A stretch of 64,000 nucleotides of DNA from Synechococcus sp. (GCA_051439425.1 JBFRWD010000123.1:1-64000); one strand, 5' to 3'. Shown: positions 2,382-40,605, counted from the first letter of the stretch. The notes: generated by a model not told the origin, from the letters alone. Numbers and translations: made by a program.

Positions 2382-3122
2382 ATGACTCAAGAAGAGAAAA
2401 AGCCAGTTCCCCCTGAAAATGCATATCCCGAGCTAGAGGACGATGGCGATCTCAACGATGCCGAGTTGGAAGAACTCATTCAGGCAGTATCCGAACCAGA
2501 CACCAGTGGTTCTGCAGAAAAGTCAGCAGACGGCGCTACTACTGCTGAGGTGGCTAAATTGAAACGAGATGCCGAAGCTGTTAGACAACAGTTAGTCGAG
2601 AAAGACGAAGCGTACATGCGGATGTACGCGGACTTTGACAATTTTCGCAAGCGCACCGCCCGCGAGAAAGAAGACATTGGTAACCGAGAGCGGCAGAAGT
2701 CTATCTTGGAAATTCTGCCCATTGTCGATAATTTCGAGCGTGCCCAACAGGCCATCAAAGTTGAAACCGAACGTGAGAAAAGCATCCACGACAGCTATCA
2801 AAGCGTTTACCGACTTCTGGTCGAATCCCTTAAGAAAATGGGCGTCTCTCGCATGAAAACAGTAGGTGAGGTGTTCGATCCGAACCTACACGAAGCCATG
2901 ATGCAACAGCCCAGCGCAGATTGCCCAGAAGGAACCATCCTGACTGAGTTTCAACCCGGTTACATGTTGGGAGAAACAGTTCTCCGTCACGCCATGGTTA
3001 TTGTCGCTACTGCCGCAGAGGATGAAACATCTAGCCCTGTCTCGGAAACCGGATCTCCCGAGACTACTGCCGAAACCGCTCTATCTTCAGAGGATGTCAA
3101 CTCTATTGAAGAACACGGGTAG
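2382..3122 (+). CDS. grpE: Nucleotide exchange factor GrpE
   Basis: ADFDNFRKR, FDPNLHEAM and GY..LRHAMV motifs; directly upstream of dnaK. Confidence 0.97.
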   Translation: MTQEEKKPVPPENAYPELEDDGDLNDAELEELIQAVSEPDTSGSAEKSADGATTAEVAKLKRDAEAVRQQLVEKDEAYMRMYADFDNFRKRTAREKEDIGNRERQKSILEILPIVDNFERAQQAIKVETEREKSIHDSYQSVYRLLVESLKKMGVSRMKTVGEVFDPNLHEAMMQQPSADCPEGTILTEFQPGYMLGETVLRHAMVIVATAAEDETSSPVSETGSPETTAETALSSEDVNSIEEHG

Positions 3123-3323
3123 ACTTGACATATTCTGAGCCAATTTATTGGGAAGAGGAACTCTCAATTCTTCAGATCATCTTTGGGAATGCGTTCTTGA
3201 ATTTGAACGGGTTTAATGGTGCTGAATTCTCATACGTTTATGTAATGAAGAGTTGAACGGCTCCAGCTACACCGCATATTCCTTAAACATCACTAATCAT
3301 CCCGGTATCCACTCGAGCGAACT

Positions 3324-5138
3324 ATGGGCAAAGTTATCGGTATCGACCTCGGCACCACCAATAGTTGCGTGGCCGTACTAGAGGGTGGACAACCAGTCGT
3401 TATTGCGAGTTCCGAAGGGGGTCGCACCGTACCTAGTATCGTCGGCTTTACCAAGAATGGTGAGCGATTGGTAGGACAATTGGCAAAACGCCAAGCGGTT
3501 ACGAACGCCGAAAATACAGTCTTTAGCATCAAGCGATTTATTGGTCGCAGATGGGAAGACACCGAGCAAGAGCGCAGTCGGGTTCCGTATAACACTGTAC
3601 GCGGTCGCGATAGCACGGTCGAGGTGACGATTCAGAACCGTTCGTTCACAGCCCAAGAGCTATCTGCAATGATCTTGCAGAAACTGAAGCAGGATGCAGA
3701 AAACTACCTGGGAGAAGAAATTACCCAGGCTGTCATTACCGTTCCCGCCTATTTCAGCGATGCCCAACGCCAGGCCACCAAAGATGCAGGTACGATCGCA
3801 GGTCTTGAAGTACTGCGAATTATCAACGAGCCAACTGCCGCCTCTCTAGCTTACGGACTCGACAAGCAAGACTCCGAACAATACATTCTCGTATTCGACC
3901 TCGGGGGAGGAACATTCGACATCTCCGTACTGCAGTTAGGAGATGGTGTTTTTGAAGTCAAGGCAACCTCGGGTAACAATCACTTGGGTGGAGACGACTT
4001 TGACGAGCGCCTGGTTGAATGGCTGATCGAACAATTTAAGGAACAGGAGTCCATCGATCTGGGACAAGATCGCATGGCTCTGCAACGTTTGAGAGAGGCA
4101 GCAGAAAAAGCCAAGGTGGAGCTATCCACGACCAGCACAACATTAATCAACCTGCCGTTTATTACAGCCGATGACACTGGTCCCAAGCACCTTGAAATGG
4201 AACTAATGCGGTCTCAGTTCGAGGAATTGGTCAAAGATCTGGTCATGTCAACCATTGAGCCGACTAAACAGGCATTAGCTGATGCGGATATCACTGTCGA
4301 TCGCATCGATCGCGTCATTCTGGTGGGGGGCTCCACTCGCATACCCGCCGTGCAGCAAGCTATCCAAGATTTTTGCAGCGGCCAAACCCCCGATCGCTCG
4401 GTCAACCCTGATGAAGCTGTCGCGTTAGGGGCGGCGATTCAAGCAGGGGTGATGGGGGGAGAAGTTAAAGATCTCCTATTGCTGGATGTCACCCCGCTAT
4501 CGATGGGCATCGAGACATTAGGGGGGGTATTTACTCGCATCATCGAGCGAAATACCACTCTACCTACCAGCAAAACTCAAGTTTTTTCCACCGCTGCAGA
4601 CAATCAAACCGTTGTCGAAATCCATGCCCTGCAAGGGGAGCGGTCGATGGCAAAAGACAATAAAACGCTGGGCAAGTTTCAACTCACCGGCATCCCCCCA
4701 GCTCCGCGTGGAGTGCCACAGATTGAGGTGGCATTCAACATCGATGCCAACGGCATTTTGGATATTTCTGCCCGTGACAAAGGAACCAATCTTGAGCAGA
4801 GCGTCACCATCAGCAACACTGGCGGCTTGAGCCCGCTGGAAGTTGAGCGTATGCGACAAGAAGCCCTCGCCTATGCAGAGGAAGATCGGACCCGACAGCG
4901 GTTGGCAGATATCCGTAACCAAGCTGACGGCTTAATTTATAGCTATGGGGCCACGATGAGCGACAGCGGTAACTTATTGGAGCCCGGTCTGAAAAATCGT
5001 TTGGAATCTGCTTCAATTCAGCTCAAACAACGGATTGCCGACGAAAACGCCACGCTGGGCCAGATTGAACAAGCAATGGATACATTGCGGGCCTTGCTCA
5101 CAGAAGCAGGCACGGCAATCTACAGCCCTGACCTATAG
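3324..5138 (+). CDS. dnaK: Molecular chaperone DnaK (Hsp70)
   Basis: [26 protein letters not shown] and NPDEAVA motifs; 604 aa. Confidence 0.98.
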
Positions 5139-35205: not shown

Positions 35206-35625
35206 TCAGTCCTTAATTTCTACAGAGATGATGCGATCGCCTTTGCGAATAGCGTTAACAATATCCATGTCTTCCGTCTTGCCAAAGACAGTGTGAACGC
35301 CATCTAAATGACGCTGGGGGGAATGGCAAATGAAGAATTGGCTACCGCCAGTGTTGGGACCCGCATGGGCCATCGACAAAGACCCGGCTAGGTGTTTGTT
35401 GTCATTGATTTCGCAATCAATGGTGTAACCGGGGCCACCGGTACCGGTCCCGTTGGGGCATCCTCCCTGAATCATGAAGTTGTTGATAACGCGATGGAAG
35501 TTGAGACCGTCGTAAAAGCCTTTTTTCGCCAAATCGACAAAATTTTGAACCGTATTGGGCGCATCATCGCTAAACAGCTCCAGATTGATGGTGCCTTTCT
35601 CGGTGTTCATTACAGCGCTGGGCAT
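35206..35625 (-). CDS. Cyclophilin-type peptidyl-prolyl cis-trans isomerase
   Basis: [25 protein letters not shown] and HTVFG motifs. Confidence 0.96.
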
Positions 35626-35902
35626 GGGTTCACTCCTGACAGTTGCGTGCGATCGCTGTTCAACTAGCGATTAGCTTATCCAGTCTCTCGAATTCTCGGA
35701 CAATTAGCGACATTGATTTTCGAATCTTGACTCAGCCAACGGAGTTTTCCGTGCAAAGGACATTGACCGATCGCAGAATTTTGATAGCGCCTTCCACCTA
35801 CAGCCATTCAACCTGGCAGCATCTGTCAGCATATTATTCCTAGCTGGGCCATCTCTCTTGTTGCCTAGACGGACATCTATGCCGATGTTAAACTTTCTAA
35901 TG

Positions 35903-35927
35903 AATCTACAGTAACCCCATCGGAATA
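35903..35927 (+). promoter_or_regulatory. Putative Rrf2/CymR-like operator overlapping a -10-like hexamer (TACAGT)
   Basis: AATCTACAGTAACCCCATCGGAATA; 12 of 25 positions are identical to the reverse complement of the 13147 palindrome. Confidence 0.45.
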
Positions 35928-36357
35928 CCGGTCTTTACGACAGAACCCTCATCCCAAGAGGATTTGTTCGTCCAGAAAGAGTGGGTTAAACGGTCGCTGT
36001 AAGTTTAAATTGCAGGCGAGGTCTCACACGAGTAAAGGATGTTCGTATCCAATTCTTAGGTGAATGCTCGCTTCCGGTTTAGACAGTTTGATTGCAAAAC
36101 CCAACGTTTTGCAGCTATGGATACCACGTGAACCTAAAATACATGGGGCAAAAACTCCCCTCGTAGCACTCTCGCTGTTACATTGAGAAGCCCCGGGGCA
36201 TCTTTAGCTTCGTGCCTCAAAGCGTCTCCAGCCCCTTGCTACTATCACTGGCAGCTTTATTTACAAGGGCTAATTGCCCCCTGGATAGGTTGCTGAACCC
36301 ACAAACCCGCATCTCGCTCACATTCGCGCGAATTAGCACTAGAGGAACAGCAGGACA

Positions 36358-38706
36358 ATGGTTGCTCAAAAACCGGTCGCTCAAAACTCATCCCAGTCTT
36401 GGAAGAGCCTACTGGGCGACAAGATCTCGGATCGACTGGCTGAGGAAATCGATACATTTGAAAGCCAGATGGAACTGCGTAAGCAGGGCAAACTGGACGA
36501 GAAAGTGTTCGCCGAGCTACGTCTGCGTCGTGGTGCTTACGGTCAGCGTTACGACAATGGATTTAGAGACGATGGGGAGCAATCGCGCGAACTGGAATTC
36601 CCCAACAAAGAAATTACCAAAGGCCCCGGCACCCTATACGAAGCACCGGGCATGCAACGCATTAAGCTGCCCTACGGTGGCATGACCGCCGAGCAAATGG
36701 AAGTGATGGCGGACATTGCCGAAGAATACTCCGACACCATCATTCACATCACCACCCGTCAGGACGTGCAGTTGCACTTCCTCAACTTGGATGACACCCC
36801 TGACATGCATCGTCGTCTGGCAGCTGTGGGCATTACCACCCGCGAGGCTTGTGGGAACTCTGTCCGCAACGTCACCGCTTGCCCCCTGTCCGGTGTCTGC
36901 CACGATGAGTCGTTTGACGTCACCGGCTACGCCGATCAATTAGCTCAGTACTTCTTGGGTCACCCTGACGTACAGGACTTTGGCCGCAAGCTGAAAGTGG
37001 CGTTTTCGGGATGTGCTGACCACCCCTGCGGTCTCACCTCCATGCATGACCTGGGCCTGATCGCAAAGACCCAAGTCGTTGATGGCAAAGAAGTTCAAGG
37101 CTTCGAAATGTACGTGGGCGGCGGCCTGGGTGCCGTCCCCCACTTAGCCAAGCTATTCTCAGAGTTTGTCGCACCTGAAGAGCTGCTGCCTCTGTCTCAG
37201 GCAATCTTCCGCGTATTTGCTCGCTTGGGAGAAAAAGCGAATCGCAACAAGGCCCGCATCAAATTCTTGGTCGGCAAGTTAGGCATCGACGAGTTCCGTC
37301 GCTTGGTGATGGAAGAACGCGCTATTTTGCCCGACGATCCCGACTGGAGAAGCTGGCTAGCTGACATCAATAAGTACGAGGAAGCTGGTTCCCCTGCGGC
37401 CGTCTCTCCTGGCGAGACTCCGGTTGATGCAGACATGTTTGCCAAATGGAAGTCCACGAATATTTATCAGCAACGTCAAGCGGGCTATGTCGCAGTCACG
37501 ATTCCGCTGCCGTTGGGTGACATGACCGCTACTCAGATGCGCCGTCTAGCGGATGTCGTTCGTCGTTTCGGTAACGAAGCGCTCCGTACTACGGTCGAAC
37601 AAAACCTGCTAATGCGTTGGATTCACGAAGCAGACTTACCCGCACTCTACAACGCCCTGCATGCTATTGATTTGGCAACCCCCGGCGCCGAATCGATCGT
37701 GGATATCGTGGCTTGCCCCGGTACTGACACCTGCAAGTTGGGTATCTCCAGTTCTCGTGGTTTAGGTGGCGAATTGATGCGTCGCCTCACGGTTAAGGGG
37801 TGGCAATATGACGAAGCCGTGAAAAATATCCGCATCAAGGTCAGCGGCTGCTTCAACTCCTGCTCTCAGCACACTGTTGCTGAGATTGGGTTCTACGGTG
37901 CCAATCGCCTCGTCGATCGCCATCGCGTGCCCCACTTCCAGCTCATCTTGGGTGGTACCTGGGATAAGAACGCTGCAGAATACGGTCAATCTGTGGCCGT
38001 TGTACCTTCCAAGCGCGTCCCCGATGTGGTGGAGTTCCTGGTGGATATGTACATGCAGGAGCGAGAAGGGAAAGAGAAGTTTAATGAGTTCGTCAATCGT
38101 ATTGGTAAGAAAGCCATTCGCGATCGCGTTCAACCCTTCTTAGCCGTCCCCAGCTACGCCGAAGACAAGTCCTTTTACACTGACTGGGCAGACAACCGGG
38201 AGTACACTCTCGGCGACATCGGTATTGGCGAATGTGCCGGTGAAGTAGTTACCCTAACGGACTTTGGAGTTGCCGCTGCAGAGAGCATCCACTTCGATGC
38301 CACAATTTTGCTGGAGGAAACTCCTGCCAACGGTAACGTCAAACAGGCAGCCGATAAAGCATTTGAATCCATGTTGAGTGCGGCTCAAGCACTGCTAAAG
38401 ATTCAGAATATCGATATTGCTGACGACGCCGACAGCATTGTGGCCGAGTTCCGCAAGTATTTCTACGACACGGAATTGTTCTTCGATCCCTTCGCCAAGG
38501 GCAAATTCGCCAGCTACCTGTTTAAGGCTTACGATGGCCGCAACGAAGCAGCGACGATCGATCGCGCCAAACAGCTAATTGAAGAAGCACGCCTGTTTAT
38601 CGAAGCAGCTCACGCTTGCAACGCCCGCATGGTAGAAGACGGGATTACCACCCCGGCTGGTTTCCAGCGCTGGCTCAACGAGAAACAATTGCAAGCTAGC
38701 AGTTAG
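36358..38706 (+). CDS. Siroheme/[4Fe-4S] sulfite (or nitrite) reductase with a C-terminal HEPN-like domain
   Basis: LRRGAYGQR, HITTRQDVQLH, REACGNSVRN, ACPGTDTC and SGCFNSC; GECAG followed by a helical AFESMLSAAQALL domain. Confidence 0.88.
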   Translation: MVAQKPVAQNSSQSWKSLLGDKISDRLAEEIDTFESQMELRKQGKLDEKVFAELRLRRGAYGQRYDNGFRDDGEQSRELEFPNKEITKGPGTLYEAPGMQRIKLPYGGMTAEQMEVMADIAEEYSDTIIHITTRQDVQLHFLNLDDTPDMHRRLAAVGITTREACGNSVRNVTACPLSGVCHDESFDVTGYADQLAQYFLGHPDVQDFGRKLKVAFSGCADHPCGLTSMHDLGLIAKTQVVDGKEVQGFEMYVGGGLGAVPHLAKLFSEFVAPEELLPLSQAIFRVFARLGEKANRNKARIKFLVGKLGIDEFRRLVMEERAILPDDPDWRSWLADINKYEEAGSPAAVSPGETPVDADMFAKWKSTNIYQQRQAGYVAVTIPLPLGDMTATQMRRLADVVRRFGNEALRTTVEQNLLMRWIHEADLPALYNALHAIDLATPGAESIVDIVACPGTDTCKLGISSSRGLGGELMRRLTVKGWQYDEAVKNIRIKVSGCFNSCSQHTVAEIGFYGANRLVDRHRVPHFQLILGGTWDKNAAEYGQSVAVVPSKRVPDVVEFLVDMYMQEREGKEKFNEFVNRIGKKAIRDRVQPFLAVPSYAEDKSFYTDWADNREYTLGDIGIGECAGEVVTLTDFGVAAAESIHFDATILLEETPANGNVKQAADKAFESMLSAAQALLKIQNIDIADDADSIVAEFRKYFYDTELFFDPFAKGKFASYLFKAYDGRNEAATIDRAKQLIEEARLFIEAAHACNARMVEDGITTPAGFQRWLNEKQLQASS

Positions 38707-38750
38707 GTAACTCTCACTTTTTTTGCCGGGTCAGCCGACTCGGCACTTCA

Positions 38751-38795
38751 TTTCAAGACTCGATAGTTCAAGACCCAAAATTTCAAGACTCGACT
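38751..38795 (+). repeat. Three imperfect 15-bp tandem repeats (core TTCAAGAC)
   Basis: TTTCAAGACTCGATA | GTTCAAGACCCAAAA | TTTCAAGACTCGACT. Confidence 0.75.
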
Positions 38796-38806
38796 GGAGT
38801 AAAACG

Positions 38807-39391
38807 GTGGATCTCGATCGCTTCTGCGTCAAATTGTTTGCAAATTCTGGCGTCGATATTGACGAAGCCCATTACATCAACATCTTTCACGAGTGGATTC
38901 GTAAGAATCAGCTAGAAGGATTGCTGCTGGATGTGGTGGACTATCGCCACATTCCCAACGGACCTGGCATTATGTTGATTTCCCACGAAACCAACTATGC
39001 ATTGGATCACGAGGGTGGCGAGTTTGGTGTCTACGCTCAGCGCAAGCTAGGTTTACCGGGCGAGAATGCCGACAAGAGCCACTCGGACAAGATTGTGGAC
39101 TTGGTGAAGGCTACGGCTAAGTTCAGTTCTCTGCTGGAGTCCGACAACCGTCTGGATGGCGAACTGAGCATTGATGGCAGTGGGTTCCTCTACATGACCA
39201 ACGATCGCCTACATGCCCCCAACACGGACGAGACGTTTGCAGCTCTCAAGTCTGACTTAGAGGCGGCGGCGGCGTCACTGTATCCCGGCAAAGCTGTAAC
39301 AGTGACTCGGGTAGAGAATGACGCTCGCGATCGCCTGTCTGCAAAGGTATCGGTATCCGAGCCAGTGGCAGCTGCGGCGTTGGCGGCATAA
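38807..39391 (+). CDS. Hypothetical protein downstream of the sulfite reductase (194 aa)
   Basis: GGAG ribosome-binding site and GTG start; FHEWIR..LLDVVDYRHIPNGPGIMLISHE and NDRLHAPN motifs. Confidence 0.8.
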   Translation: MDLDRFCVKLFANSGVDIDEAHYINIFHEWIRKNQLEGLLLDVVDYRHIPNGPGIMLISHETNYALDHEGGEFGVYAQRKLGLPGENADKSHSDKIVDLVKATAKFSSLLESDNRLDGELSIDGSGFLYMTNDRLHAPNTDETFAALKSDLEAAAASLYPGKAVTVTRVENDARDRLSAKVSVSEPVAAAALAA

Positions 39392-39492
39392 CCTTTCACG
39401 ATTTGGCTTTTCACCATCCAATGACAACTGGGAGACAGTTCCTGACTGCGATGGTGGAAAGCTATGGTAGTGTATGAATCGCACCACACCAC

Positions 39493-39574
39493 GCGGACGT
39501 GGCGGAATTGGTAGACGCGCTAGATTTAGGCTCTAGTGGAGCAATCTGTGAGAGTTCGAGTCTCTCCGTCCGCA
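39493..39574 (+). tRNA. trnL: tRNA-Leu (anticodon TAG)
   Basis: Acceptor stem GCGGACG/CGTCCGC, D-loop GGAATTGGTAGAC, anticodon arm CTAGA-TTTAGGC-TCTAG, long variable arm and T-loop GTTCGAGTC; CCA not encoded. Confidence 0.97.
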
Positions 39575-40069
39575 TCTGGAAATTCCTGAAGATAGCAGTA
39601 CGATCCATCTGGCAAGTTTGCTGGGTGGATTTTGTGCTGAATGGATACAGAACAGGGAGCTGTTGATCGCCGGGTCTTCCTGTTAGAGCTGAACGAACGG
39701 TATCACGAGGCGATGAAAAAGCACGAAGAGTCATCATCATGTCTGGAATGCTTGCAGGCCCGGACGTATTGTCGAGAGATTCGATCGCATTGGCTTTGAC
39801 GATTCCGCTCTGCCCATCCGCCAATATGATTGGGCAATCGTTCGCGAGTCCACCGAGATCTTCGTGCGGGACGTTTGGGAGAGGGGGGGGGGGTGGACAA
39901 CTGAACGCTACCGGAACGAACAACTACGACATTGAGTCAGCCCAGTGCGAAAACAAAAAAGCTAGAGTGTGAATACTCCGGAGATAGCCGATACCATCAG
40001 TCGATTGACGTGATATCGACTTGGGCGATCGCTTGCATTGCACTCATCTGCAAGTAATGGAGCTAACTC

Positions 40070-40605
40070 GTGGAAAGTCGCCTCAACATCGAATCAGATT
40101 CACTCTCTCGACGAACATTTCTCAACTTCCTAACCGGTACAGCACTTGCCACAACCGCTGGAGCAATTCTCTACCCTATTGCCAAGACCCTATCTCCTCC
40201 GGCAGAACAAACAGGTAGAGGTGGAGCCGTTACAGCAAAAGATAAATTAGGACACGAGATCCCGGCCTCGCAGATATTGAGCGAAGCCCCCGGTAGCCGC
40301 GCTCTAGTTGCAGGACTAGCCGCCGAGCCAACATATTTAGCAGTGCTGGATGACGGAACACTGGACAAACGTGGACTGGTGGACAATTGCCCCACCTAGG
40401 CTGTACCTTTCACTGGAATCCGCAGGCCCAACAATTTCAATGCCCCTGTCACGGCTCGCGCTACGCGCCAGACGGAAGAGTCGTTCGTGGGCCCGCTGGC
40501 TTGCTTCTAAAACTCGTTCGTGTATCGGTTGAGGGCGATCGCATCTGGATTGCTCCATGGACAACCATCGACCCCCGCACCGGACAACGCCCGTGGTGGG
40601 TTTAG
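40070..40605 (+). pseudogene. petC: Cytochrome b6f Rieske iron-sulfur protein paralog with a 1-nt frameshift
   Basis: Tat motif SRRTFL. The frame breaks at DNC|HLGC near 40390; the second frame carries CPCHGS and RTGQRPWWV. Confidence 0.85.

Follow-up and report, generated by a model that had tools for sequence, protein, structure and literature searches.

The stretch of Synechococcus sp. DNA analysed here, 64,000 nucleotides (nt) in length (GCA_051439425.1, JBFRWD010000123.1:1-64000; hereafter the window), carries at 36358-39391 a gene for a long form of sulfite reductase (the long Sir) followed on the same strand by a gene for a 194-residue protein, which we call the partner. The parts of this locus are listed below.

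36358-38706, + strand: long Sir gene, 782 residues plus stop, from the open reading frame, Pfam and homologues of ~780 residues that are 61-100% identical
36358-36651, + strand: N-terminal extension (residues 1-98) specific to the long-Sir family, with an invariant R55-D66 block and a loop (~65-98) predicted to contact the partner
36652-37347, + strand: first sulfite/nitrite-reductase repeat (residues 99-330), with R101, R170, K211 and K213; from Pfam
36850-36852, + strand: codon of C165, invariant in 62/62 sequences
36880-37029, + strand: extra N-terminal Cys set C175-X5-C181 ... C219-X4-C224, candidate ligands of a second [4Fe-4S] cluster
37450-38133, + strand: second sulfite/nitrite-reductase repeat (residues 365-592), from Pfam and NCBIfam stretches and the alignment to the Protein Data Bank (PDB) entry 1zj8
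37714-37863, + strand: canonical siroheme-coupled [4Fe-4S] ligands C453-X5-C459 ... C498-X3-C502, aligned with the Cys of canonical Sir and NirA
38134-38244, + strand: linker (residues 593-629), with invariant D609, W610, D612, R614 and the G624-E-C626-A-G628 loop
38245-38634, + strand: HEPN-fold helical domain (residues 630-759), with the near-invariant C754 in its last long helix; from AlphaFold2 (AF2), Foldseek and VIA-align
38707-38806, + strand: intergenic spacer of 100 nt, with a stem-loop, three tandem 15-nt units and GGAG before the GTG
38807-39391, + strand: partner gene, 194 residues plus stop, encoding a small acidic alpha/beta protein of an unnamed family, a predicted subunit of the reductase

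The partner most likely starts at the GTG at 38807, which has a GGAG a few bases upstream and gives a protein of 194 residues. The G+C content of the region, 0.48-0.56, is similar to that of its flanks. Conservation was judged on two sets of sequences, the 120 closest homologues (61-100% identical) and 62 sequences from at least six phyla (53-98% identical); fractions of 62 below refer to the second set.

Enzyme class and substrate pocket of the long Sir

The 782-residue protein matched the Pfam families NIR_SIR (PF01077) twice, with 178.6 bits, and NIR_SIR_ferr (PF03460) twice, with 134.4 bits, and no Pfam family matched residues ~600-782. None of the NCBIfam equivalogs reached its cut-off: the NirA-family model of the Mycobacterium tuberculosis SirA type (NF007126) scored 268.8 against 523, NirA (NF007125) 217.3 against 594 and ferredoxin-dependent Sir (TIGR02042) 120.5 against 731.5, while the dsrA and dsrB models gave only 25-59 bits. 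Among solved structures, M. tuberculosis NirA/SirA (1zj8) matched best by sequence (E 2.6e-47); plant nitrite reductases (E 1e-41 to 1e-37), maize SIR, Escherichia coli SiRHP and Fsr came next, and residues 1-98 matched no solved chain.

The pocket residues R101, R170, K211 and K213 are each present in 62/62 sequences. Position 213 is K in the long Sir and in two canonical Sirs, and N in the NirA of the same genome. C165, also 62/62, aligns with the Cys of 'TEACGD' in 1zj8 and is presumably, as in that enzyme, the Cys of a Cys-Tyr bond.

A gene pair conserved across phyla

A scan of species representatives, one genome per species, returned at least 555 loci that encode a relative of the partner, of which the best 80 were analysed. 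These 80 come from Cyanobacteriota, Chloroflexota, Pseudomonadota (Steroidobacteraceae, Acidiferrobacterales and others), Planctomycetota, Acidobacteriota, Gemmatimonas and Entotheonella. At 73 of them, the gene immediately upstream, in the same orientation and at a distance of 9-566 nt, encodes a long Sir with the tail; three of the other seven are at a contig edge, and all four remaining genomes carry a long Sir elsewhere. Among 301 cyanobacterial genomes, the partner occurred in four and the tail in the same four. Among 151 Planctomycetota, the five strong tail hits (E <= 1.5e-46) fell in the same five genomes as the partner, with the two genes adjacent. The long-Sir family is thus widespread, and the two genes form a conserved module, which is non-standard, as the first-pass annotation of the window had proposed.

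The only candidate sulfite reductase of its genome

The Synechococcus genome (96% complete, 182 contigs) makes sulfite, since it has ATP sulfurylase and PAPS/APS reductase. Its only NIR_SIR genes are those for the long Sir, a 513-residue NirA (contig C74) and the large subunit of a NirB-type NAD(P)H nitrite reductase (contig C39; L003 1249-3357, minus strand). No hit in this genome exceeded the TIGR02042 cut-off, which the Synechococcus elongatus control passed. Across the 301 cyanobacterial genomes, canonical Sir (E <= 1e-100) was found in 125 and in none of the four that carry the module. It is present in every sampled genome of families f2-f30, save one f9 genome and all three of f21, and the four carriers are these three f21 genomes and the Synechococcus genome itself. 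The f9 genome (G122, one of 18 in its family and reported as 99% complete) has neither canonical Sir at E <= 1e-100 nor the module. In three non-cyanobacterial carriers, the long Sir is likewise the only hit to the Sir model.

An accessory, second Sir was considered and rejected, given that this genome and the other cyanobacterial carriers have no canonical Sir. Because the tail and the partner share the same 4/301 genomes and none of these has canonical Sir, the module appears to be the housekeeping enzyme, and by far the best reading is that it is an assimilatory sulfite reductase that displaced canonical Sir. An additional or exotic enzyme is not the right description of a protein that is the only candidate sulfite reductase of its genome.

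Gene neighbourhoods were compared at 14 non-cyanobacterial loci. PAPS reductase lay near three of them, siroheme-synthesis genes near five, PALP-rhodanese genes near two and a LysR regulator near one, and at six of the 14 at least one sulfur-assimilation or siroheme gene stood beside the pair. ThiS/MoaD, E1-like and JAB genes occurred in none of the 14, which leaves the suggested analogy with the thiocarboxylate pathway of Wolinella without a counterpart there. At two Anaerolineales loci, PAPS reductase and a siroheme-synthase N-domain gene precede the Sir gene and a DUF4202 gene follows the partner (L035 6890-7288, L048 6677-7324), which gives the appearance of a compact sulfate-assimilation operon. 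Two Planctomycetota loci have a fused PALP (cysteine-synthase-like) and rhodanese gene divergently upstream of the pair (L078 2202-3605, L084 2051-3610, minus strand).

A quick maximum-likelihood analysis of the 62 long Sirs joined the 29 rows that bear the label Cyanobacteriota and four unlabelled rows in one clade (SH-aLRT 100), placed beside Anaerolineales/Caldilineaceae (support 99) and then Acidiferrobacterales and Gemmatimonas (100); the other sequences from Pseudomonadota, Planctomycetota and Acidobacteriota fell outside. The root is unsure because the outgroup branch is very long. The cyanobacterial carriers are labelled Coleofasciculus, Waterburya, Spirulina, Cyanobium, Cyanothece, Leptolyngbyaceae and Synechococcus-like. 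Because the module is rare (4/301) and the cyanobacterial rows form a single clade next to Chloroflexota, it is plausible that the module was acquired horizontally, a possibility raised at the outset, and then spread within Cyanobacteriota.

A second Cys set in the N-terminal repeat

The long Sir has Cys at positions 165, 175, 181, 219, 224, 453, 459, 498, 502, 626 and 754, each kept in 119 or 120 of the 120 closest homologues. In the 62 sequences, C165, C175, C181, C219, C224, C453, C459, C498, C502 and C626 are invariant and C754 is present in 56. The most conserved stretch of the protein is residues 151-180, with a mean conservation of 0.96 against 0.92 at the canonical site (120 homologues). 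An internal alignment of the two halves scored 158.5, against 36.5 +/- 7.3 for shuffles, and paired C175 with C453, C181 with C459, C219 with C498 and C224 with C502. The four N-terminal Cys also align with the functional motif ACPGEGNC...SGCPN-KC of Fsr (7npa), within which lie both Cys428 and the bridging Cys472 named in the part of PMC10229431 that was available. In the alignment, none of the four positions is a Cys in M. tuberculosis SirA or tobacco nitrite reductase.

Two canonical cyanobacterial Sirs (632 and 635 residues) and the NirA of the same genome (513 residues) contain neither the N-terminal Cys set nor the tail, in agreement with what the first-pass annotation had said of typical cyanobacterial Sir and NirA. 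Its two Cys motif sets were found at exactly the positions given, invariant in the 62 homologues. In assimilatory enzymes, the N-terminal half 'lost its cluster binding motif', in the words of an excerpt of PMC10229431; judging by the alignments, the long-Sir family has kept it.

The linker and the HEPN-fold tail

The linker motif G624-E-C-A-G628 is invariant (62/62). When residues 593-782 were folded alone with AF2 from 62 sequences, they gave a helical bundle with a predicted local distance difference test score (pLDDT) of 87.3, the GECAG loop lying below 50. The best Foldseek match was 2hsb (E 5.2e-3, TM score 0.73 on the target), followed by the HEPN entries 4nqf and 2q00. VIA-align also placed 2hsb first (Z 15.4, root-mean-square deviation 3.0 A, 119/126 residues aligned); its ranks 2-5 were 1ufb, 1wol, 3o10 (sacsin HEPN) and 4nqf, at Z 11.4-12.8 and with three titled HEPN, and many further matches were HEPN or nucleotidyltransferase-substrate-domain entries. 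Helical bundles can reach Z ~13 through arrangement alone; the call of a HEPN fold for residues 630-759 holds because the top Z exceeds 13 and one superfamily dominates the list. Thus the linker and helical HEPN-like domain described in the first pass are both borne out.

Within the Pfam HEPN clan, the tail gave only a weak match to PaREP1 (E 0.055, 13.8 bits against a cut-off of 24.4). The R-x6-H pair is poorly kept, with R745 in 34/62 (Q in 24) and H752 in 36/62 (Y in 26). A catalytic HEPN RNase was rejected on this ground, and because of the poor conservation of R745 and H752 a nuclease function of the tail is unlikely. No match to TusA (PF01206) was obtained even at E <= 10, and none to rhodanese or ThiS. 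A search of 1.84 billion representatives returned 430 relatives of the tail at E <= 0.001. The best 150 of these were mostly short and were taken as fragments, those of 745-764 residues carry the tail C-terminally, and the 150 gave no evidence of a stand-alone tail family.

The partner and its predicted complex with the long Sir

The 80 homologues of the partner are ~190 residues long; few are named by their sources, all as 'hypothetical'. W30, D42, V43, D45, Y46, H48, G52, P53, G54, N132, D133, R134, P138 and N139 are present in 62/62, so that invariant residues occur in the FHEWI, DYRHIPNGPG and NDRL motifs picked out earlier in this linked 194-residue protein. The partner has no conserved Cys (C7 in 35/62) and is acidic, with a median isoelectric point of 5.2. 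AF2 predicted an alpha/beta protein with pLDDT 92.6 and a predicted TM score of 0.91.

Searches with the partner gave no Pfam family at E <= 10 and no NCBIfam family, and thus no nucleotide-, metal- or tetrapyrrole-binding family and no TusA, rhodanese or ThiS. Its family profile matched no PDB chain at E <= 10. No named ESM Atlas cluster was matched, the clusters found there being unnamed ones of ~200 residues from Acidobacteriota, Planctomycetota and Chloroflexota. Fold matches were weak and mixed: AdoMetDC/prozyme in Foldseek (E 6e-4, TM 0.39/0.28), and Z 5.1-6.4 to TBP, phosphoglucomutase domain 4 and AdoMetDC, all below the level that the tool treats as meaningful, for which reason the partner is given no fold family. 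One metagenomic protein, P0216 (365 residues), combines a tail-like segment (1-161) with a partner-like segment (198-359, 38% identical) in one open reading frame, and a second, P0283 (385 residues), has a similar layout and looks frameshifted. Both may be rare natural fusions, or else artefacts of read-through or a frameshift; as candidates they were not used as support.

A complex of the full-length Sir and the partner was modelled, each with a 62-row alignment. The ipSAE values were 0.92, 0.93 and 0.92, whereas the highest value among three controls was 0.00. The ipSAE mark is reached by 116/157 solved complexes and 2/215 mismatched pairs, counts that hold only roughly here because custom alignments were used. 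The partner had a pLDDT of at least 91, at least 69% of contacts were shared between runs, and there were ~88-92 low-error contacts. Because the partner has no solved relative by sequence, the score is unlikely to be the memory of a known complex. The model thus supports binding of the partner to the reductase.

On the partner side, the predicted interface consists of residues 41-53, 132-136 and 174-176, which are its invariant motifs. On the Sir side, it comprises parts of the N-terminal extension (13-18, 64-82, 95 and 97), of the 'parachute' half-domains (115-128, 141-143, 385-395 and 438-441), of the loop between and after the cluster ligands (D457, R467, G468, 471 and 474) and of the linker (611-614). 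Family-invariant residues make up 17/44 of the Sir interface, against 23% elsewhere.

The predicted interface can be set beside the ferredoxin site of maize SIR, where, according to an excerpt of PMC11947256, ferredoxin spans from domain 2 to the Asp110-Asn118 loop close to the metal sites and Arg324 stacks on ferredoxin Tyr37. The maize loop, 'DRDVRGQKN', occupies chain positions 58-66 (offset 52), right after 'HGSYQQ'; the long Sir has 'RGAYGQ' (59-64) followed by a longer loop. From the shared G-x-Y-x-Q motif we infer that the docking loop corresponds to ~65-82 of the long Sir, within the predicted interface. On this alignment, as opposed to coordinates, the partner would overlap one side of the classical ferredoxin site and reach the cluster loop.

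Relatives that end in a sulfur carrier

Three further Planctomycetota genomes gave weak tail hits and contained no partner, and the two with long frames were compared: L097 (G352:C144:10800-15500, 545-2899; 785 residues) and L098 (G404:C77:5300-10000, 560-2887; 776 residues). Their Sirs are 33-36% identical to the long Sir in the core and have the linker, W610 and the E-C626 pair in common with it, and their C-termini are TusA sulfur-carrier domains (PF01206; 66.6 and 60.7 bits against a cut-off of 28.6). All four N-terminal Cys are kept in L098 and replaced by S, A, S and N in L097. Neither has C165 or C754 (I or V at 754), and in both the partner-binding loop, ~70-97, is deleted. Directly after its Sir gene, L097 has a Flavin_Reduct gene (2865-3392); L098 has a PALP fragment upstream.

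Each of the two keeps 6/17 family-invariant interface residues, against 83/147 and 97/147 of those outside the interface (Fisher p 0.12 and 0.017, from two sequences). This lends modest support to the predicted interface. Because the linker Cys of this sister group goes together with a sulfur-carrier domain, a role of C626 in a persulfide relay stays alive, and the sister Sir-TusA enzymes are a hint of sulfur relay in the long Sir.

The intergenic spacer and a neighbouring gene

The spacer at 38707-38806 contains a hairpin with a 9-bp stem (38724-38745), preceded by a T-run, and three tandem 15-nt ATTTCAAGACTCGA-like units (38750-38793) just ahead of the ribosome-binding site of the partner. 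The hairpin and repeats may be a regulatory or processing element. A promoter scan of 35600-39700 found no sigma-70-like site, and terminator-like sites in the same interval numbered 4 against 4.3 expected.

Further downstream, at 40070-40605 (+ strand), lies a gene for a Rieske-type iron-sulfur protein that is apparently split over two frames. Its upstream portion (40070-40399) begins with a twin-arginine-like signal and has ...DNCPT as its last residues; PHLGC...CPCHGS belongs to the downstream portion (40387-40605). The break falls at a run of four C (~40391-40394), where either the assembly is wrong by one base or the frame truly shifts.

Discussion

Taken together, the observations are best explained by a two-subunit assimilatory Sir, the housekeeping enzyme for the reduction of sulfite to sulfide, which has a second centre and a bound small subunit; we put the probability of this reading at about 0.7. 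The 782-residue subunit would be a fused two-repeat siroheme enzyme with its active site arranged as in known assimilatory enzymes, and its N-terminal repeat would supply the Arg/Lys substrate pocket. None of the solved assimilatory enzymes has kept the four N-terminal cluster-ligand Cys, unlike the long Sir, whose N-terminal repeat most likely binds a second, non-catalytic [4Fe-4S] centre in the arrangement of DsrA in DsrAB. Because the pocket residues at this second site are not basic, it looks non-catalytic, like the 'structural' site that DsrA carries in DsrAB (PMC10229431, in excerpt). The 194-residue protein would be a constitutively bound small subunit, with its DVxDYxHVPxGPG and NDRL loops clamping the 'parachute' domain, the N-terminal loop and the C453-C459 loop. 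The family-specific N-terminal loop of the long Sir would then be the equivalent of the ferredoxin-docking loop of maize SIR, and the partner may shape or shield the electron-entry face next to the cluster. The partner probably does not carry electrons or sulfur itself, because it has no conserved Cys and no cofactor motif. The HEPN-fold tail would be non-catalytic.

Several points weigh against this reading. In the N-terminal repeat, the second half-motif is spaced CX4C in place of the canonical CX3C, and the pocket positions of the second site are V448, D449, N/D490 and R/H492, of which only the last is basic; such a site would fit a non-catalytic centre and equally a mere structural use of the Cys. 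Spatial clustering of C175, C181, C219 and C224 is suggested by positional homology only. Maize R324 (chain 272, 'GRTHR') maps to ~258-263, outside the predicted interface. Ferredoxins are usually acidic, and since the partner is acidic as well, a donor-docking role for it is not obvious. The comparison of interface retention comprises two sequences, one with p 0.12, and the 14 neighbourhoods contain no conserved third gene that hints at an electron donor. When longer proteins with the partner fused into them were sought, none turned up, which is weak evidence.

It is possible, though somewhat unlikely, that the four N-terminal Cys hold no iron-sulfur cluster and are a structural remnant, such as a zinc site or disulfides, in an ordinary enzyme with one cluster and one siroheme. 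The CX4C spacing and the lack of a basic pocket would be expected of such a remnant, the published view is that the site was lost in assimilatory enzymes (PMC10229431, in the part available), and the loss of all four Cys in one TusA-type relative, L097, indicates that they are dispensable in a related scaffold. All four are nevertheless invariant in 62 sequences from several phyla, Cys of the set lie inside the most conserved stretch of the protein (151-180, 0.96 against 0.92), and the local motifs A-C-P-x4-C and S-G-C copy the functional ones. It is extremely improbable that the long Sir is a nitrite reductase or other six-electron reductase instead of a sulfite reductase. Plant nitrite reductases are among its best solved matches, the NirA models of NCBIfam outscore the Sir models, and sources label its homologues 'nitrite/sulfite reductase'. 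However, 1zj8, which heads the solved matches, is the sulfite reductase of M. tuberculosis with an active-site Cys-Tyr bond, as stated in a title cited in the available part of PMC11947256; the genome already carries both NirA and a NirB-type enzyme, at K213 the long Sir is Sir-like, the neighbouring genes belong to sulfate assimilation, and the long and canonical Sirs are mutually exclusive.

Two further alternatives concern what the add-ons do. We think it very unlikely that the partner is a maturation factor, inserting siroheme or the iron-sulfur cluster or acting as a folding chaperone, which binds transiently and is not a subunit of the working enzyme. A dedicated assembly factor would fit the strict gene linkage, the siroheme-synthesis neighbours at 5/14 loci and a predicted site that touches the loop between the cluster ligands (D457, R467, G468), but the interface is large and confidently predicted (~88-92 low-error contacts), invariant residues on both its sides are more typical of a permanent subunit, the partner matches no nucleotide-, metal- or tetrapyrrole-binding family, and one metagenomic open reading frame, a candidate fusion, joins tail-like and partner-like segments. 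A sulfur relay, which would be compatible with the two-subunit assimilatory enzyme, is speculative and in our judgement unlikely. The C-terminal extension, and perhaps the partner, would take reduced sulfur from the active site, a C626 persulfide and C754 in the HEPN cleft passing it to a downstream acceptor without free sulfide. C626 is invariant and C754 nearly so (56/62), the GECAG loop was of low confidence and is possibly mobile in the tail folded alone, L097 and L098 share the linker, W610 and E-C626 and end in TusA without a partner gene, and PALP-rhodanese genes lie divergently upstream at 2/14 loci. Against this, the partner has no conserved Cys (C7 35/62), tail and partner match no TusA, rhodanese or ThiS, C754 is replaced by I or V in the TusA-type relatives, ThiS/MoaD, E1 and JAB genes are absent from the 14 neighbourhoods, and assimilatory enzymes are held to release sulfide directly (PMC10229431, in the part available).

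A more far-reaching version joins these elements and is, as a whole, quite unlikely. The long Sir would be a living intermediate between two-site enzymes (Fsr, DsrAB) and one-site enzymes, an obligate heterodimer with persulfide hand-off. A second [4Fe-4S] centre would be loaded N-terminally, possibly with a second, non-catalytic siroheme; a partner of a new fold family would occupy the ferredoxin-docking face; and the GECAG Cys and Cys754 of the HEPN cleft would do the job of the fused TusA in the sister subfamily.

Under the two-subunit reading that we prefer, the long Sir works like canonical Sir (TIGR02042; maize SIR, 5H8V/5H92; cyanobacterial Sir of ~635 residues), which shares the superfamily, the two-repeat fusion, the C-terminal CX5C...CX3C, the R/R/K/K pocket and the presumed role in sulfate assimilation, and which the long Sir replaces in carrier genomes. 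The long Sir differs from it in its TIGR02042 score (120.5 bits against 731.5), in keeping the N-terminal Cys, in ~190 extra C-terminal residues, made up of linker and HEPN fold, in a different and longer N-terminal loop at the maize ferredoxin dock and in its obligate partner gene. M. tuberculosis NirA/SirA (1ZJ8), a monomer and the best solved match, has C165 aligned; it differs in carrying Gly/Ser/Leu/Val-type residues at the C175, C181, C219 and C224 positions and in lacking a tail, and it is not known to have a comparable partner. DsrAB with DsrC would be alike in having ligands in both halves with one pocket, and a small dedicated partner. In contrast to DsrAB, the halves of the long Sir are fused in one chain with no inserted ferredoxin domain, and both context and distribution are assimilatory. 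DsrC has conserved Cys, whereas the partner of the long Sir has none. Fsr (7NP8/7NPA) is a single-repeat, 'prototypical' enzyme whose functional site aligns with the N-terminal repeat of the long Sir, which has one extra residue (CX4C); Fsr differs in that its single-repeat chains assemble into a homo-oligomer and have an F420H2-oxidase domain.

In E. coli SiRHP-SiRFP, an N-terminal extension holds a stable partner (PMC11947256, in excerpt), and the long-Sir extension likewise gives much of the predicted interface. SiRFP, however, is a diflavin reductase that delivers electrons, whereas the long-Sir partner is unrelated to it in fold and shows no cofactor motif. A HEPN-fold tail and a partner outside any known family set the long Sir apart from canonical Sir, DsrAB, Fsr and SiRHP alike. 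Sir-ThiS fusions of Actinobacteria have been described, as have ThiS/JAB/E1 operons, that of Wolinella among them (PMC1779556). Sir-ThiS and Sir-TusA resemble the long Sir in having a C-terminal add-on, and the TusA type shares its linker and C626; they differ in that the long-Sir tail has a HEPN fold and no ThiS/MoaD, E1 or JAB gene occurs in the 14 neighbourhoods. The tail has the same fold as the HEPN superfamily (2HSB AF_0298, 3O10 sacsin, HEPN-MNT toxins), from which it differs in being fused to a metabolic enzyme, in its poorly kept R-x6-H and in passing no Pfam HEPN model. The first-pass interpretation stands in its two-gene module, Cys homology, HEPN fold and plausible acquisition; its Wolinella analogy is not supported, and the enzyme is neither extra nor exotic.

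Assimilatory Sir is a textbook enzyme described as a monomer (PMC10229431, in the part available). The long-Sir family breaks this description with its kept motif, a HEPN domain fused to a metabolic redox enzyme and an uncharacterised small protein that is always co-encoded and that the model places with confidence on the electron-entry face. It does so in at least 555 species-level genomes of Cyanobacteriota, Chloroflexota, Pseudomonadota, Planctomycetota, Acidobacteriota, Gemmatimonadota and others. Searches of open full-text literature, which excludes subscription journals in which prior work may exist, yielded no account of this architecture, and the long Sir with its partner is apparently an undescribed variant of the textbook enzyme. 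Were the more far-reaching version true, assimilatory sulfite reduction would use protein-bound sulfur transfer, as in DsrAB-DsrC. The evolution of a one-site enzyme from a two-site ancestor becomes testable on an extant protein. Because the long Sir replaces canonical Sir in cyanobacterial carriers, the partner is probably needed for all sulfate assimilation there; annotated only as a 'hypothetical protein', it is a target for function discovery with a clear phenotype, growth on sulfate.

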